Positions 1,688 through 8,475 are shown, counted from the stretch's first letter. The stretch: 53,943 nt of DNA from a virus (IMGVR_UViG_3300024999_000139:1-53943); one strand, 5' to 3'. The notes: generated by a model not told the origin, from the letters alone. Numbers and translations: made by a program.

Positions 1688-1705
1688 GCTTCAAATGTTA
1701 AGTTA

Positions 1706-2104
1706 TTAGACTATACTAGAAGGAACAAGGTTTTGGGAACATGGACACATTCTCGTTCTTACCATTCTACAAGGCGTTAATGATAATTCTTTCTCATCTA
1801 CAACCAAATTATTGCCTTTGAATACCGTATGTTCATCAATTATTTTCTCTAAATTAAGACGTTCTATATGAAAGGAAAAATCCAATCCGGCAACTACTTT
1901 CTTTTCGTTTAAGAAAACCAATGCTTTCTCAGCATGTTCTTTGGTCGTATATCCCCTTGCTTCTTGGGAGAATGTTTTAAATGCTATGTATTGCCATTTT
2001 TTATTGTTTAATTTGCCTATACTTGATTTATTGATAAAGTTACCATCTTGATCTTTAATAACCCAAATTAATTGTTCGTTTTCTTCTTTTTTAAAACATC
2101 CCAT
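1706..2104 (-). CDS. hypothetical protein
   Basis: 132-aa ORF with AAGGAG RBS. Confidence 0.7.
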   Translation of the reverse strand: MGCFKKEENEQLIWVIKDQDGNFINKSSIGKLNNKKWQYIAFKTFSQEARGYTTKEHAEKALVFLNEKKVVAGLDFSFHIERLNLEKIIDEHTVFKGNNLVVDEKELSLTPCRMVRTRMCPCSQNLVPSSIV

Positions 2105-2184
2105 ACATTCACTTCTCCTTTAATTTTATTTTATGGAAAATTCTACAAATAGGGCTTTAATTCATTTAATACCTCCTTGTTAAT

Positions 2185-2213
2185 ATTATATCGTACATAT
2201 GTACGAGTTTCAA
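2185..2213 (-). promoter_or_regulatory. sigma-A promoter with a palindromic operator in its spacer
   Basis: TTGAAA-17 nt-TATAAT; spacer holds the perfect 16-bp palindrome TCGTACATATGTACGA (2191-2206). Confidence 0.75.
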
Positions 2214-2262
2214 TGAACAAAATTCCAAAAATTTGTGGATTATGTTCTATTATGTTCGGTGT

Positions 2263-2269
2263 TTCGACA
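2263..2269 (-). promoter_or_regulatory. Spo0A (0A) box
   Basis: exact TGTCGAA on minus strand; near-matches at 2311-2317 and 2320-2326. Confidence 0.4.
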
Positions 2270-2279
2270 TTGTTGTGTT

Positions 2280-2360
2280 TTATTTATTTATTAAAATAGG
2301 AATATTGTCATTTGACATAGGTCGAATGTCATAGCACTTTAGGACTATCTTTATGAGCAT
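2280..2360 (-). CDS. small ORF (26 aa) coupled to membrane protein 2
   Basis: AGGAGGTG RBS overlapping the upstream TAG; MLIKIVLKCYDIRPMSNDNIPILINK. Confidence 0.35.
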   Translation of the reverse strand: MLIKIVLKCYDIRPMSNDNIPILINK

Positions 2361-2372
2361 TGTTATCACCTC

Positions 2373-3206
2373 CTACGCATAATAATCTTCTTGACTGGCA
2401 ATATCATCCACATTATCACTATTAATAATATTTTCATAAACCTGCATTTTTTGTTTTTCTTTTGATAAAAAATAATTAATTACAATTAATAACCAAGTAA
2501 TCAAAATTACAGGAGTAGATGTAATTATTACAATAATGATAAATTGGTCAATGAATTGAAAACTAAACAAAATACTTTCACTTTCTATCAGTTTAGCAAT
2601 ATAAGTAATTATTGAAACTACAGACATTATTATCGCAGCAAAACTTCCCATAAAGAATTTACTCTTGATAATAACATCAAATAAATTTACTTTCACTTTG
2701 CCATTTTTCTTCATTATGATAAAAGTTATGATACACGTATAAAGAATTCTTGCAGGTAAACCCAATAGAAAATTATAGAAAAAAACATTATTAAAAAATT
2801 CTTGAGGCTTATGTAATAGTGAAAATATTATTGGACAATATGCATATTCCAATATTCCAGTGATTACAAAACCTGCTAGTGTGTAGATTGCTGTTTTTAG
2901 TATCAAGGGGATACTTATATTGTCGCTATTTTTAATTACTATGTAAATCATTGAAATAATCATTAGTGCCATTGCCGACAATATTACATCTATTTGAGGA
3001 ACAGCAATCACAAATCGTAAAACGCTAACTAATATAGATGTGGGCAAAGTTGCAATTAAAATCCATTTTAAATTTTTCTTCCACATATAGATATCAAAAA
3101 GATTATCTAGTTCTTTTAGGAATGTTAGAGTTATGATTGCGATAAATAATTCTTCAGGTATTCCTACAAATAGCATATTTAATATAGCATTGACAATGGT
3201 CTGCAT
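2373..3206 (-). CDS. polytopic membrane protein, putative peptide receptor with no kinase domain (paralogue of 5136..5975)
   Basis: about 7 hydrophobic segments, GIPEE motif, LPARIL, short acidic C-tail; no HisKA or HATPase motifs. Confidence 0.7.
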   Translation of the reverse strand: MQTIVNAILNMLFVGIPEELFIAIITLTFLKELDNLFDIYMWKKNLKWILIATLPTSILVSVLRFVIAVPQIDVILSAMALMIISMIYIVIKNSDNISIPLILKTAIYTLAGFVITGILEYAYCPIIFSLLHKPQEFFNNVFFYNFLLGLPARILYTCIITFIIMKKNGKVKVNLFDVIIKSKFFMGSFAAIIMSVVSIITYIAKLIESESILFSFQFIDQFIIIVIITSTPVILITWLLIVINYFLSKEKQKMQVYENIINSDNVDDIASQEDYYA

Positions 3207-3369
3207 AGGGATTCCTTCTTTCGTTTTTGTTTGATTTGTGGTGGTTGGGACTTATTATGTATTACTGTTGCTGTAAATATATCATAAATCATGGAAAATT
3301 TAATTGAATAAAGTATGACAAATATGGGAGTGGATAGGGGATGCGTGGACTATGAAAGAAAATTATATA

Positions 3370-4008
3370 TTATCTATGTATACTTTGTTCATCTAAGAGA
3401 GAATACAATCCGTAACCAACATTGCTTATCGAGAAAAGTTCTAGTAATAATCCAAAGCAACTTGCAATAATAATTATATTTAGATTAAAGAGTAAGAAAA
3501 TGGTCATTATCATTGCCCATGATATTAAGTAGTATAACGACCATTTTCTGAACTTTGATTTTTCAGAATCTTCTGTAATTGGTTTATTAGGTGTGTCGCG
3601 AGGGACATATTTTAAAATTATATATAGTCCCATCGCTAAACAAAATATAAATAATATTTGCATATCCATGTATGACCAATATTGCAGCGTGTGTTTAACT
3701 ATTAATGCAGATACTATGAATTGAAGGGTAGAAAATGTGATACATTTTGTATAGTCACTAAAATGAAAACCACCTCCAATTATTCTAAAACTACTAAAGG
3801 TTAATGTGATAATCATAGAGGTCATTAAGACTCCAAAGATAGACGCTAACGACACCATTATAAGTCCTTTTATTAATGCTCCTACGATTACCATGAAACC
3901 ATAAGTATAAACCTCAATTTGATCTTCTACAGTTGGATATTTATCATTTGGTACTTTTGTAGCTAATTTTTTAGCAAGATAATTTGATATAAATTCGATA
4001 AAATTCAT
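3370..4008 (-). CDS. agrB: AgrB-family peptide-processing membrane protease/cyclase
   Basis: IEVYTYG, RIIGGGFH...C catalytic His/Cys motif, PRDTPNKP. Confidence 0.92.
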   Translation of the reverse strand: MNFIEFISNYLAKKLATKVPNDKYPTVEDQIEVYTYGFMVIVGALIKGLIMVSLASIFGVLMTSMIITLTFSSFRIIGGGFHFSDYTKCITFSTLQFIVSALIVKHTLQYWSYMDMQILFIFCLAMGLYIILKYVPRDTPNKPITEDSEKSKFRKWSLYYLISWAMIMTIFLLFNLNIIIIASCFGLLLELFSISNVGYGLYSLLDEQSIHR

Positions 4009-4032
4009 TAAATTATTTAATCTTCCTTTCTT

Positions 4033-4860
4033 TTATCGTGCATAGGCTACCTGCTGACCTGCACTAGAATAATTATTTTGATATTGATTTTGCCTGATTG
4101 ATTTAACTTTATTTAGGTTTTTTAATGCTTCAATTGCTTCTTCTTCATTTACATGTATTTCTAAAACACCCTCCGATTTCATAAGAGCGATTTCAACTTT
4201 TAACATTAGGTTTGGTGGGCATTCCGATACCTTTTGAAACACTCCATTCTTTCCTATTAATCTCCTTTTTGATATTGTGTTTGGTAATTCACAACATATA
4301 ATTGAATCTTGGGGAATTCCGCACTCTTTACTGCTTGCAAAAACGTGAGTAGGCATCTTTGCTTTGGATCTACTGGTCATGGCGATTACGATGGAATTGC
4401 TAGAACACGCATTACCCTTGTTATTTTGAATCACAAGCACCATTCTTGGGCCTCCCACCTCACTATCTATCCCTTTGTCTCCAAAATCTGCGAAACAAAA
4501 ATCACCCCTTCTGACTCGAATATTTTTTATTTGCTCCAAATCATTATTTTCATACAATGAATACCCACATGCTATTTTCAGATCCTGCAATGAAACTCTA
4601 CCTTCTGAATTATTTGCGAAAACATTAAGAGTTTGAACGTTTGGGTAAGCATTTATTTTTTCACGAATAATTAATTCTATGTACCCTCCTTCAATTTTGC
4701 AGTCTGCTCCAAAATTATTAATAGTCCTATGAGTGCCTTTAGCATTCATAATTAAATTGGCTAATTTCTTAAAATCCTTTTTTGTATTTTCCTCAGAGTT
4801 AGTAGTGTTGGTTGATTTAGCAAATAATTTGTTGAACATAATAATGCACATCCTTTTCAT
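4033..4860 (-). CDS. XRE-like HTH fused to PemK/MazF endoribonuclease domain (start may be ATG at 4839)
   Basis: N-terminal helical domain ending LKIACGY; C-terminal RRGD...SEVGGPRMVLVIQN...IAMTS...PTHV. Confidence 0.8.
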   Translation of the reverse strand: MKRMCIIMFNKLFAKSTNTTNSEENTKKDFKKLANLIMNAKGTHRTINNFGADCKIEGGYIELIIREKINAYPNVQTLNVFANNSEGRVSLQDLKIACGYSLYENNDLEQIKNIRVRRGDFCFADFGDKGIDSEVGGPRMVLVIQNNKGNACSSNSIVIAMTSRSKAKMPTHVFASSKECGIPQDSIICCELPNTISKRRLIGKNGVFQKVSECPPNLMLKVEIALMKSEGVLEIHVNEEEAIEALKNLNKVKSIRQNQYQNNYSSAGQQVAYAR

Positions 4861-4901
4861 ATTTAATAAGATATAAATAATTTTCTTTATCTGATAGTAT
4901 T

Positions 4902-4931
4902 ATTATATCCTACTATGTATGAATATGTCAA
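4902..4931 (-). promoter_or_regulatory. sigma-A promoter for HTH-MazF and agrB
   Basis: TTGACA-18 nt-TATAAT. Confidence 0.7.
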
Positions 4932-4969
4932 CACAATTATTGTAATTGTTTATTAATTTATATTATGGT

Positions 4970-4999
4970 TATAGGGAAGAACCGAAGTCCTTCCCTATA
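4970..4999 (-). terminator. stable hairpin after agrD
   Basis: TATAGGGAAGGAC-TTCG-GTTCTTCCCTATA with a cUUCGg tetraloop; no clear U-tract. Confidence 0.6.
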
Positions 5000-5011
5000 T
5001 GTAGGAAATGA

Positions 5012-5128
5012 TTATTTCATGCAACTAGGAGTTTTTGGTTGATAAGAAATAAAATAAGAAGCAAACACGGTGGAGAACATGGAAGTAGCCATACATACAA
5101 CACTTGCAATAATAGCATATTTTTTCAT
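5012..5128 (-). CDS. agrD: AgrD cyclic-lactone autoinducer propeptide (not in ORF track)
   Basis: AGGAGGTG RBS; MKKYAIIASVVCMATSMFSTVFASYFISYQPKTPSCMK has a hydrophobic leader, SYFIS core and YQPKTP tail typical of clostridial AgrD. Confidence 0.9.
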   Translation of the reverse strand: MKKYAIIASVVCMATSMFSTVFASYFISYQPKTPSCMK

Positions 5129-5135
5129 TTTGTTT

Positions 5136-5975
5136 TCACCTCCTTTCATCTAAATCTTCTACATCAAGCATTACATCATCTTGCATAACAAGATTTTTGT
5201 AAGTCTGTTGTATTTGTCTTTCTTTAACCAACAAATAATTGATTAATAGTAACATCCAAAATAATATAATAGCAGGAATTACTAATGCACCCATTACGAT
5301 AAAACTTTGTTCAATCATTGATACTTTGTTTTCTAAAATTCTATCAGACCCAATAAGCTTTAAAACATAAATCGCAATAACATTAGACATTATCGTAAAT
5401 GAAATAAAAGAATACAATAAAAATCTATTTTTAGAAATAGTTTCAAATATTTTAATTTCAACGATATTGTTGTGTTGTATAATTAAATATATTACTATTG
5501 AAAATCCTAATATTCTGGACGGAATACTTAATATGAAGTTCCATAAAATATTGGTATTTAAGAAATCAAGAGGTTGATTCATTAAATATAGCATTATTGG
5601 ATAAGTACATCCTTCAAGAAAACCGAACATTATCAGACTAAAAATTATGCATACAAACAGTTTACAATAATCTCTTTTCTTGAATTCAAAACTATTTTTT
5701 CTTATTATATATGTAAATGTGATAATAAATATTATCAATGAACTTAATGAACATGTGACTTTTGGCAATTGTAATATATATTTTGTTGTATTTATATTTA
5801 CAGACATTGACAAAACAGGTATTATAATCCATTTTAAATTTTGCTTCCACATTCTTATGTCTAACATATCAAATCTTTTCAATAATATTAGCGTCATTCC
5901 CGTTAAAAACAATTCTTCTGGTATGCTCACCAAGATCGTGCTCAATAAAGCATTTATTACACCTTGCATATGCAT
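5136..5975 (-). CDS. polytopic membrane protein, putative peptide receptor with no kinase domain
   Basis: SIPEE motif, IPSRIL, about 7 hydrophobic segments, acidic tail; its stop overlaps the agrD RBS. Confidence 0.7.
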   Translation of the reverse strand: MHMQGVINALLSTILVSIPEELFLTGMTLILLKRFDMLDIRMWKQNLKWIIIPVLSMSVNINTTKYILQLPKVTCSLSSLIIFIITFTYIIRKNSFEFKKRDYCKLFVCIIFSLIMFGFLEGCTYPIMLYLMNQPLDFLNTNILWNFILSIPSRILGFSIVIYLIIQHNNIVEIKIFETISKNRFLLYSFISFTIMSNVIAIYVLKLIGSDRILENKVSMIEQSFIVMGALVIPAIILFWMLLLINYLLVKERQIQQTYKNLVMQDDVMLDVEDLDERR

Positions 5976-6019
5976 TGCCTCTTTCTTATCTATTTCTTAA
6001 CCTGTAACGAGTATATCAT

Positions 6020-6048
6020 AAGACAAGGTGCAATGCAAACATTATTTT
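6020..6048 (-). promoter_or_regulatory. sigma-A promoter for receptor-agrD
   Basis: TTGCAT-17 nt-TATACT with TG extension. Confidence 0.6.
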
Positions 6049-6050
6049 AT

Positions 6051-6671
6051 TTATTGATTTAACATTTTATTCATATGTATTTTACTAATCTCTTTAACTG
6101 AATAATAAACAATTATAAAAACAAATAATCTACATAGCACATCCCCAGGCGACCAAATACTTGTGCCGATATCAAATATGTCAGATAAAAATATTAGATT
6201 TGTTGTATGATCTCCAAGAACATGAAAATCTCCATATTTAGAAGCATTAATAATCATATTATATTGTGTATAACCAGTTGAATAAGATACTGATGGAAAA
6301 ATTGGCATAAGATTATTGTTAAAACTCATTACAATCTTATTCAATGTAAAGCCACACAACAAACTACAACAGGCGATAATATACTCCTTATACTTCTCGT
6401 ACCTAAACAAAACATCAAGTCCTAGAATCATATATGATCCTAATATAGCATTCTTTATTATGTGTTGATATTGAAGAAAATAGTAATTCTGATTCATTAT
6501 TGTGTATTGTAGATAGACGTAAAATATTGACATAAATATTATTGGATAGATACTCCATCTTTTTAATATTGGTTTTATGAGGTATGATTCTTTATGTATT
6601 TGGAGTTTTCCTAGTTTTATGTATAGTTGAATTTTAGAGAATATGAGTGATACTATCAGTGTCTCAACCAA
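6051..6671 (-). CDS. DUF5317-family membrane protein
   Basis: NxxxMP, H...TxLxFLxD, SPGD motifs. Confidence 0.75.
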   Translation of the reverse strand: MVETLIVSLIFSKIQLYIKLGKLQIHKESYLIKPILKRWSIYPIIFMSIFYVYLQYTIMNQNYYFLQYQHIIKNAILGSYMILGLDVLFRYEKYKEYIIACCSLLCGFTLNKIVMSFNNNLMPIFPSVSYSTGYTQYNMIINASKYGDFHVLGDHTTNLIFLSDIFDIGTSIWSPGDVLCRLFVFIIVYYSVKEISKIHMNKMLNQ

Positions 6672-8475
6672 TAGTTAACACCTCTTCTCTTGTCTCTATT
6701 GTATTTATGTATTCATTATAGAACATCCATCTTAAAGGTTCTTCTGTAATTGGATGTTTCCCCATAGACTGTCGTTTATTGTTACAACATTTAGATATAT
6801 TTTGCCTTCTAATATTATATTTACTTGAAGCTTCTGTTTGTGAATCAAATACCTCTCCTGTTGTTAAACATGTTACTTTTTTATTATAATTATGATTTTT
6901 TATATATTCATCATACCATCCTATAGTTTGATTTTTAATTAAATATTCATCGTAAAATATCCATTTAAGTAGTTCTTTTGTGACAGGATGTTTACCACAA
7001 TATTTTTGTTTATTGTAACAACATTGGGATATACCACTATCTTGTATACCATACTTTCTTTTTGCATCTTTTATAGAATTAAATATCTCACCAGTGGTCA
7101 AACACATTACTTTTATACTTAGTTTATTTTTTAATTTTTCTTTGCTTTTTTGTAATTCTTTATTAGGATCGTAATCGCACCAATTTAATTTAGCACCTTG
7201 TTTTAGATATTTTCTAATAGTTGCACTATGTAATTTAAATTTCTTTGATACTTTTGATATGTTGTCAGTTCCATCATCCCACATATTACAAACTAGTTTA
7301 ATAATATTACTACATGCATATTCATGTGCTTTCAACCAATCAATATCTTCCTCTTTAAAGTTTAATAATTTAGGTAATTTACTTTTCATAATACTATTCT
7401 TTATCCATTCTAATTCAGATTTTCTACAATCTATAATTATGTAATTCTTAATATTATTACTCCTAGCCAGCCATTCTTTATCAAAATCATTGTTTTGGAT
7501 ATCTTCTAATGAACCCCAGTTAATACCAACCTCTTCATAATGTTGCAATCCTCCAACTTCGCAAATTCCGTTAATCTTTTTTATATAAAAATCATATCTA
7601 TATTTTCTACACCATTTAAAAGCAGACTTATTTAGTTGCGTTATAAAATCTTTGTTTAATAACTGTTCTAACACATTAAACGTAAATTTTTCTGGATATG
7701 GTATATTGTCTGAACATTTAGGACAAGAAAATCCGTTTATTCTTAATTGACTTATCTCTCTTTTCTTTTCATATCCACAATCTGGACATCGCATAGGCAA
7801 TTTAATTTTTGAAGATCCAGCAGGATATTTTAATGCATCTTCTGGATTAACTAGATATTTAACTAAATGAGGATGAGTTGTAAAAATTGAATTGCATTTA
7901 ATACAATCAAGATTCACTCCACTACAAACATTTGTAAAACTCGATATATTTTTTAACTCTGATCCATGTTCTGGATGCTTCAAACACTTAAACCAATATC
8001 CTTTACCATTCAATCCCCTAGAACTATGACTAACATCTTTTGGAGATAATTTATTTCCATTTTTATCGATATTTAATTCATCGTCCCATCTGTCTAATAT
8101 CCAATCTGCAAATTCTTTAGGTAGATTGTCATAACACCATTGATAAAAAGTAATACTATCTTTTAATTTTGTCTTTCTTGTTTTTTCTCCTCCGAACAAT
8201 TGCATGGTACATTTGTGACAATAATATTTCCCATCATCTTTAACACTTTTTTTATAATTTCTCCATATTATTCCTTCTAATAACTCACCACACCCATCAC
8301 ATTCAACATCAACTTTAACACGAGAATTATTTAATAGGTCATCGATTTTTACTTCGAATTTATCACCCCAGTTAGTAAAAATATATCCTCTTTCTTCATA
8401 CCATTTTTTAGTTGTCCCGTTCCATTCTGTAATACCAATTTTACTTATTAACACTTGACAAAACTCCTTTGCCAA
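6664..8475 (-). CDS. free-standing homing-type endonuclease: Zn ribbons, PD-(D/E)XK/Vsr-like nuclease and NUMOD1-like repeats (likely start GTG at 8454)
   Basis: multiple CxxC, RYDFY...EVGGLQHY...NDFDK, two VxCLTTGExFxS...IS.CC repeats. Confidence 0.75.
   Translation of the reverse strand: MAKEFCQVLISKIGITEWNGTTKKWYEERGYIFTNWGDKFEVKIDDLLNNSRVKVDVECDGCGELLEGIIWRNYKKSVKDDGKYYCHKCTMQLFGGEKTRKTKLKDSITFYQWCYDNLPKEFADWILDRWDDELNIDKNGNKLSPKDVSHSSRGLNGKGYWFKCLKHPEHGSELKNISSFTNVCSGVNLDCIKCNSIFTTHPHLVKYLVNPEDALKYPAGSSKIKLPMRCPDCGYEKKREISQLRINGFSCPKCSDNIPYPEKFTFNVLEQLLNKDFITQLNKSAFKWCRKYRYDFYIKKINGICEVGGLQHYEEVGINWGSLEDIQNNDFDKEWLARSNNIKNYIIIDCRKSELEWIKNSIMKSKLPKLLNFKEEDIDWLKAHEYACSNIIKLVCNMWDDGTDNISKVSKKFKLHSATIRKYLKQGAKLNWCDYDPNKELQKSKEKLKNKLSIKVMCLTTGEIFNSIKDAKRKYGIQDSGISQCCYNKQKYCGKHPVTKELLKWIFYDEYLIKNQTIGWYDEYIKNHNYNKKVTCLTTGEVFDSQTEASSKYNIRRQNISKCCNNKRQSMGKHPITEEPLRWMFYNEYINTIETREEVLTIG

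Follow-up and report, generated by a model that had tools for sequence, protein, structure and literature searches.

A predicted serine-ring AgrD precursor in a phage cassette that joins agrB to a seven-helix membrane protein and a MazF fusion

The window, by which we mean the whole stretch of DNA analysed here, is a 53,943-bp virus record from IMG/VR with a CheckV completeness of 39%, in which every gene lies on the minus strand; the DNA runs that hold this stretch carry the labels groundwater and sediment. It encodes a cassette with the following features, given in the order of transcription.

6051..6671, minus strand: DUF5317 membrane protein (Pfam DUF5317, 4e-17), the conserved first gene of the cassette, syntenic in most loci
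5136..5975, minus strand: 7-TM membrane protein of 279 residues, the conserved upstream partner of agrD
5139..5143, minus strand: Shine-Dalgarno sequence GGAGG, overlapping the end of the 7-TM gene and 10 nt ahead of the agrD ATG
5012..5128, minus strand: predicted agrD, an open reading frame (ORF) of 38 codons plus stop with 34 distinct orthologues
4970..4999, minus strand: hairpin with a UUCG loop and a 13-bp stem, directly after agrD, called from its folding energy
4902..4931, minus strand: predicted promoter TTGACA-18-TATAAT, a 12/12 match to the sigma-70-type consensus, ahead of the MazF-fusion gene and agrB
4033..4860, minus strand: MazF-fusion protein of 275 residues (Pfam PemK, 1.3e-17)
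3370..4008, minus strand: agrB, 212 residues (Pfam AgrB, 4.1e-36), starting 25 nt past the MazF-fusion stop
2373..3206, minus strand: second 7-TM paralogue of 277 residues, 36% identical to the first copy, with no peptide gene behind it

We compared 26 non-redundant complete cassettes with this order, in 7 of which the second 7-TM gene follows agrB; at the level of the cassette, relatives of the window were seen only among metagenome and viral contigs. Neither megablast of positions 2300..6100 nor tblastn of AgrB and the 7-TM protein against the phage collection gave a match at E 1e-5, and a search of viral contigs with AgrB alone returned no confirmed locus. Four relatives are complete according to CheckV (166–230 kb, two with terminal repeats). 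LytTR (PF04397) and HATPase_c_5 (PF14501) domains were found neither in the window nor in five related records, the four complete ones included, and HATPase_c (PF02518) was found neither in the window, which represents 39% of a genome, nor in the four complete relatives. The canonical agrBDCA layout, with AgrC and AgrA beside agrBD, is absent from the window and the relatives examined; complete large phages carry agrB and agrD without a kinase or LytTR, and a MazF fusion and a 7-TM protein always accompany them. The cassette around agrD is the part not described before in the literature that we found, as full-text searches of the accessible literature returned no description of it or of the 7-TM family.

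Some features of the surroundings are recorded here in their own right. Tyrosine recombinases occur in three of the four complete relatives (G002, G003 and G005 among the records), one genome also holding serine recombinases, and for this reason these large phages may, judging from gene content, be temperate or plasmid-like. Ahead of the window's cassette lies a 603-residue protein (6664..8475) with zinc-ribbon and NUMOD-like matches below the Pfam cut-offs and the look of a homing endonuclease. At another locus (L002, entry coordinates 1699..3252 and 6662..7390), a 242-residue ORF without a Pfam match takes the place of the second 7-TM gene, which marks this spot as a site of gene exchange.

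An earlier, sequence-only reading had proposed a 38-residue ORF with the segment FA-SYFIS-YQPKTP, and its sequence is as claimed, the ATG frame and the stop having been confirmed: 38 codons run from 5128 to 5015 on the minus strand, the TAA stop occupies 5014..5012, and the C-terminal part of the product reads ...VFA-S-YFIS-YQPKTP-SCMK. The leader MKKYAIIASVVCMATSMFSTVFA comprises residues 1–23 (5128..5060), the core SYFIS residues S24–S28 (5059..5045) and the follower YQPKTPSCMK residues Y29–K38 (5044..5015). Translated in all six frames, the window holds a single [SC]x4[HY]QPxxP motif, against a mean of 0.01 in 200 mononucleotide shuffles, two of which held a match. Translational coupling to the upstream membrane gene, likewise part of that reading, is confirmed, with the TGA stop of the 7-TM gene (5138..5136) falling inside the Shine-Dalgarno stretch GGAGGTGA at a spacing of 7 nt from the agrD ATG. 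A AAGGAGGTG-like stretch precedes the ATG in 26 loci, a few of which show small variants, and the orthologue N-termini all begin MK(K/N/V); a longer, 45-codon start at 5149 was rejected, not being conserved among the orthologues. The exact peptide was absent from a collection of 5.8 billion proteins, in which a word search with the single peptide returned no candidate.

Both the UUCG hairpin after agrD and a separate promoter for agrB had also been noticed from the sequence alone, and both were recovered. The hairpin (4999..4970) has a folding energy of −19.4 kcal/mol (z = −5.4), matched by none of 200 shuffles; it is kept in all 26 loci, with the UUCG loop in 18, and its stem sequences vary yet stay paired (for example, GGGAAGGAC/GUUCUUCCC versus GGAGAGGAC/GUUCUCUCC). 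No T-run follows it, and because of this a consensus scan of the 5-kb region called no intrinsic terminator; rather than simply end transcription, the hairpin may stabilise the 3′ end or be a site of its processing. The perfect TTGACA-18-TATAAT at 4931..4902 (minus strand), ahead of the MazF fusion and agrB, is the only 12/12 promoter match within 2000..7000, and a regular expression found the same motif in 15 of the 26 loci.

Using the 7-TM protein as bait, we fetched 66 loci, 53 of which have an AgrD-like ORF directly behind the 7-TM gene; two more (L037 and L067) have such an ORF with a GTG or TTG start that the regular expression missed, and most of the remaining loci without one end at that spot. 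Distinct peptides were counted because several of the viral and metagenome contigs are represented by two loci, and the resulting alignment holds 35 peptides, namely the window's own and 34 distinct orthologues from phage and metagenome contigs. Leader and follower are conserved in it, and the four residues after the ring position vary (YFIS, FFVT, WLGA, WFFA, AFWT and others); this is, on the aligned sequences, the pattern of a coding gene under selection with one variable block.

The sequence-only reading had suggested a search with an AgrD/cyclic lactone autoinducer profile, and the outcome was favourable for the family and short of the threshold for the window copy. The NCBIfam model for cyclic lactone autoinducer peptides (TIGR04223), which is the only family with broad support across the alignment, matches 32 of the 35 members at E ≤ 1 (best E 7.8e-13), and for the window peptide the score is 17.2 bits (E 0.004), with the curated cut-off at 19 bits. 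Its nearest orthologues (76–79% identity) reach 23.8, 26.4 and 26.6 bits, nine of ten chosen members pass the cut-off when scored singly (L007 scores 12.4), and the top score, 43.4 bits, belongs to a Ser-type copy. PF05931, which we take to be the staphylococcal AgrD model of Pfam, gave no match at E ≤ 1. A profile search of the protein collection returned 21 relatives of the peptide, one of which carries the NCBI name 'cyclic lactone autoinducer peptide [Clostridium thermosuccinogenes]'. The aligned peptides have the three-part organization of an AgrD precursor (MKK and a hydrophobic leader, A-S/C, four variable residues, (Y/H)QPxxP), a hypervariable core between conserved flanks as in AgrD, and linkage to an AgrB with invariant His and Cys. 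Assignment of the window peptide as an AgrD-family precursor is supported by these sequence comparisons.

AgrB is encoded 1 kb downstream of agrD and is present in all 26 complete cassettes. R75, G79, G80, H82 and C89 are invariant in 25 sequences, and His82 and Cys89 are presumably the catalytic pair, which in S. aureus AgrB consists of a His and a Cys seven residues apart. Between agrD and agrB, again in 26 of 26 complete cassettes, lies the MazF fusion, in which a helical N-domain of no named family precedes a MazF/PemK domain (residues about 110–229). A PDB profile match to MazF/EndoA (E 2.9e-26) and a fold match to MazF (Foldseek E 4e-11, TM 0.91 by target length) indicate, from sequence and model, that this 275-residue neighbour carries a MazF/PemK domain and is a predicted endoribonuclease. 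As for the idea that its N-domain may be an XRE-type helix-turn-helix (HTH), the domain has no profile similarity to the HTH_3 neighbour of the bacterial loci described below, and the Foldseek matches listed are all MazF. A second, plain MazF-like gene lies 4.4 kb upstream, at 9244..9624 (Pfam 4.8e-14), and no antitoxin turned up for this gene or for the fusion.

That the peptide follows the clostridial AgrD pattern with Ser at the ring position, as had been claimed from the sequence alone, agrees with the alignment, the ring column being Ser in 32 of the 35 peptides, Cys in three (L023, L036 and L006) and nothing else. At this column the C. thermosuccinogenes peptide is of the Cys type, and metagenome copies nearly identical to it (L059 and L066) are of the Ser type. 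Bacterial chromosomal surroundings hold Ser-type copies too (L065, adjoining gyrB; L067, trp genes; L069, spore-germination genes; and L078), and among eight bacterial genome loci with a peptide, the first copy is Ser-type in two and Cys-type in six. Serine, not cysteine, is the usual ring residue in one clostridial and phage clade, and the window peptide brings a phage lineage into what is so far a small group of AgrDs with a serine ring.

Two published systems guide the reading of the core. According to Verbeke et al. 2017 (PMC5322536), the product of Clo1313_2818 in C. (Acetivibrio) thermocellum is a tail-less Ser-lactone pentapeptide, identified by LC-MS/MS against a synthetic standard, which corresponds to S25–F29 and is followed by Y30 in the precursor; the cyclic form, not the linear one, slowed growth. 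That precursor shares with ours the A|S cut, which in C. thermocellum came from SignalP, and a five-residue core from Ser, then Tyr and a Pro five further, and it likewise stands outside a canonical agrBDCA operon; it differs in lying on a bacterial chromosome, where the authors found no AgrB nearby, whereas here a phage carries AgrB within the cassette (PMC5322536). In R. cellulolyticum, the ring of Rc-AIP1 is CWFWSY (Molloy et al. 2021, PMC8251862), and in Ruminiclostridium precursors from our genome loci, CWFWSY is followed by YQ(K/R)(E/D)CP. Rc-AIP1 and the clostridial cAIPs share with the predicted window product a tail-less ring, a cut directly before YQ, a signal-peptide-like leader ending in small residues and a free N-terminal amine that permits an acyl shift to a homodetic cyclopeptide, although Rc-AIP1 has Cys and a six-residue ring where the window peptide has Ser and five (PMC8251862). 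Since both published cuts fall directly before (Y/H)Q, the window ring would be SYFIS, and the V-x-A|S site at the end of its leader fits the −3/−1 rule for signal peptidase I. These parallels support a predicted tail-less SYFIS lactone, or, because the ring Ser would then have a free amine, a head-to-tail lactam after an O-to-N shift; by analogy, a serine ring in the window peptide is plausible. Standard residue masses put the [M+H]+ of cyclic SYFIS at about 598.287 and that of the linear peptide at about 616.298.

The same source describes Ser rings as occurring 'in rare cases' and shows the S-to-N shift for Rc-AIP1, its authors leaving the O-to-N rearrangement of Ser lactones open (PMC8251862). 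The lactone with a possible O-to-N shift that the sequence-only reading put forward is thus a sound reading but not a new one, the question having been posed already by Molloy et al., and the 32 Ser peptides among our 35 provide natural test cases for whether tail-less Ser lactones become lactams. Its further suggestion of a distinct, phage-private chemistry is not supported, given the Ser-lactone pentapeptide known in C. thermocellum and the Ser copies in bacterial contexts: serine chemistry is neither new nor phage-specific, and any privacy of the signal more likely stems from the hypervariable ring sequence. Known Ser-ring peptides of the AgrB/FsrB-type pathway, in which Ser also replaces Cys as the ring nucleophile, differ in that they keep an N-terminal tail, blocking an O-to-N shift, and are sensed by AgrC/FsrC kinases.

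On this evidence, we hold with good confidence that this ORF functions as an agrD gene, carried by a large phage from anaerobic environmental samples, and that AgrB would turn its product into a SYFIS ring. The cleavage sites, ring chemistry and signalling role we infer as follows. The precursor would insert in the membrane via its hydrophobic leader, and the phage AgrB, acting as a Cys protease, would cut between Ser28 and Tyr29, remove the follower and transfer the acyl group to the Ser24 side-chain oxygen. Cleavage of the signal-peptidase type behind VFA23 would then free the tail-less five-residue ring, the lactone could rearrange to a head-to-tail lactam via its free amine, and the free ring would build up outside, where either the 7-TM protein or a host kinase would read it. 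Several observations sit less easily with this account: the window peptide falls below the TIGR04223 cut-off and has no Pfam AgrD match, its leader with VFA|S also fits an ordinary Sec signal peptide, the follower Cys is kept in 31 of the 35 peptides without explanation, and, unlike in agrBD operons, a hairpin, a promoter and the MazF gene separate agrD from agrB.

Among agr loci of other organisms, those of the Rc-AIP1 type have agrB directly adjacent and no interposed 7-TM gene in the eight loci fetched, judged by ORF sizes only. The agr3 locus of C. difficile phage phiCDHM1 resembles the present cassette in pairing agrB and agrD in a phage with no response regulator, as described by Hargreaves et al. 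2014 (PMC3901668), but that phage is a myovirus and encodes an AgrC-like kinase with a HATPase_c domain, whereas the present cassette lacks a kinase and contains a 7-TM protein and a MazF fusion instead. Brevibacillus phage Davies likewise has kinase-less membrane proteins beside agrB and agrD; it differs in its gene order (membrane, membrane, agrB, agrD), in having no MazF fusion and in being a temperate phage of 46 kb, and by profile comparison its membrane proteins do not resemble the 7-TM family (hhalign probability below 1%). Davies gp47 (L068 28164..28283), the 39-residue 'hypothetical protein' encoded right behind the annotated agrB, has no Cys; if it is the AgrD suspected by Hargreaves et al., it too would be a Ser-type peptide or else would not cyclise. 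The arbitrium system of Bacillus phages (AimP/AimR) relies on a linear hexapeptide that is imported and bound by a cytoplasmic receptor. It shares with the present family phage-encoded secreted peptides with lineage-specific sequences, and the cassette may act alike; there is no homology, the AimP_fam model matching one of the 35 peptides, and that weakly (E 0.055).

The 7-TM protein matches no Pfam or NCBIfam family. Its AF2 model (pLDDT 84) has seven long helices and a cytoplasmic helix; Foldseek against the PDB gave no match at E ≤ 0.001, and a wide VIA-align search reached at best Z 7.7 over 99 residues with unrelated helical proteins, which is within helical-bundle noise. An exhaustive profile search found 242 clusters of the family at E ≤ 0.001, and the best 150 of these are all of at most 326 residues, so none of those 150 is fused to a kinase. 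In the protein atlas, the 7-TM protein falls in a cluster of 637 members, 76% of them viral, and the second-nearest cluster in a feature search (score 0.91) bears the automatic name 'putative sensory transduction protein kinase', which we treat only as a lead. Comparison with 12 multi-TM HATPase_c_5 kinases by hmmsearch and hhalign gave probabilities of at most 16%, against 100% for a control (A1 vs A6). A CAAX/Rce1-type protease was considered for the 7-TM protein and rejected, with a match of the paralogue only, at E 0.69, and no His among the invariant residues of the family. In the acidic cytoplasmic tail of the 7-TM protein, the sequence QQTYxNLVxQDDxMLDVED is conserved. The predicted complex of this tail with the MazF fusion scored 0.00 in a run without controls, a result that counts in neither direction for an antitoxin-like docking.

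The 7-TM family extends into bacteria. Profile A1 found nothing in genome contigs, and a profile built from bacterial-type members found 11 loci there. In Ruminiclostridium hungatei, a family gene is flanked by an AgrB recognised by Pfam (E 8.9e-39) on one side and a Cys-type agrD on the other, and the agrB/7-TM/agrD order of ORFs recurs in related Bacillota MAGs; in phages, DUF5317 precedes the 7-TM gene, and agrD comes directly after it. Of 12 bacterial-type loci tested, 9 have a small XRE-type HTH_3 gene just past agrD and convergent with it (L074 7138..7554 and eight others), a candidate for the output regulator of an agr variant that lacks a kinase.

Among the phages, the 7-TM gene is the most variable gene of the cassette. 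We compared 19 pairs of loci in which the MazF fusions share 85% identity or more: in the 16 pairs with different rings, 7-TM identity is 42–65%, against 65–92% for AgrB and 77–89% for DUF5317, and in the three same-ring pairs, one of them a duplicate record, it is 84–100%. The contrast is inverted in some pairs: in L041/L042, which has the same ring, the 7-TM proteins are 95% identical but AgrB only 73% and MazF 79%. Staphylococcal agr loci have a hypervariable block, and the likeness of the 7-TM pattern to it favours a receptor or another ring-specific role. The case for a receptor is weakened by the spacing of 7-TM and agrD, since genes 7 nt apart co-inherit anyway, by the duplicate among the same-ring pairs, and by the finding of no likeness to the sensor domains of the 12 AgrC-type kinases and of no PDB fold match. 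Judged from these comparisons, the 7-TM protein is most likely the specificity partner of the ring; that it is a kinase-less receptor, setting pherotypes among related phages, is a guess.

Alleles of the second 7-TM paralogue assort independently of the first copy: among L024, L040 and L050, the second copies are 87–90% identical and the first copies 39–49%, and their flanks differ too. The idea that the second copy listens to another phage's ring found no support, its best identity to any sampled first copy being at most 51%.

A true AgrD could instead be addressed to the host, with the ring read by, or blocking, a host AgrC/AgrA pair and the 7-TM protein serving export, leader removal or self-protection. 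The lack of LytTR, HATPase_c_5 and HATPase_c in the window and the four complete relatives fits such an audience, as do the 5–18 HATPase_c_5 matches, several of them on multi-TM proteins, in each of the bacterial genomes with a 7-TM/agrD pair; the place of the bacterial 7-TM gene between agrB and agrD would suit a biosynthetic helper. Yet nothing would require an export or leader-cleavage helper to diverge along with the ring, whereas the 7-TM protein is the most variable of the cassette and tracks the ring, and leader and cleavage site are conserved. We regard a host audience as possible, though somewhat unlikely.

At the other end stands a system owned entirely by the phage, in which the parts considered above would act jointly: kinase-less signalling with the 7-TM protein as a new type of receptor, allelic receptor and peptide pairs as pherotypes among phages of 166–230 kb, output via the MazF fusion (in the bacterial cousins, via the XRE regulator) rather than by phosphorylation, and an orphan second 7-TM protein that hears a foreign ring. 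As a whole, we consider this combination doubtful. Should the 7-TM protein prove to be a receptor, it would represent a second route to sensing cyclic autoinducers and a phage communication system built from agr parts.

Export of a linear peptide by the Sec pathway, as a Phr- or AimP-like pheromone or a small secreted or membrane peptide, with AgrB uninvolved and the likeness to AgrD reduced to a short motif, is very improbable. The secreted product would then be the linear 15-mer SYFISYQPKTPSCMK in place of cyclic SYFIS. MKK, a hydrophobic core and V-x-A|S do fit the signal peptidase I rule, agrB belongs to another transcription unit, and profiles of Sec-exported pheromones give scattered weak matches (Phr_nterm in 2 of 35 peptides, best E 0.13; AimP_fam in one, as noted; NprX in one, E 0.55). 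Against this, the AgrD model matches 32 of the 35 down to E 7.8e-13, AgrB accompanies the peptide in every complete cassette, and Ser and Cys alternate at the ring column. Phr/AimP-type peptides have their active part at the C-terminus, whereas here the C-terminus is conserved and the variable block consists of exactly four residues ahead of an invariant follower. A precursor of identical layout, moreover, yields a cyclic product in C. thermocellum (PMC5322536).

Finally, an AgrD whose ring does not form through Ser24, whether by another nucleophile, by Cys36 in a larger ring or disulfide, or as an uncyclised competitor for AgrB, is highly unlikely: lactone formation by an AgrB of this clade is a prediction only and Cys36 has no part in the standard model, but the Ser24 column is the only one to alternate between Ser and Cys, the ring position of Ser28 varies, and the follower Cys occurs in Cys-type copies as well, the one named by NCBI among them, and is therefore a feature of the follower rather than a ring residue. 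A ring through Cys12, the case that the sequence-only reading had set against its own proposal, is excluded because Cys12 is unique to the window copy among the aligned peptides and not shared by its orthologues.

Two minor observations concern the peptides themselves. The follower Cys (PxC[ML]K; Cys36, 5021..5023) is kept in Ser- and Cys-type peptides alike (31 of 35), and the standard AgrD model gives it no role. On one bacterial contig (L072, 4831..4950 and 5380..5559), the 7-TM gene is followed by two AgrD-like genes in tandem: a Cys-type copy, then a Ser-type copy whose HQP motif is duplicated.
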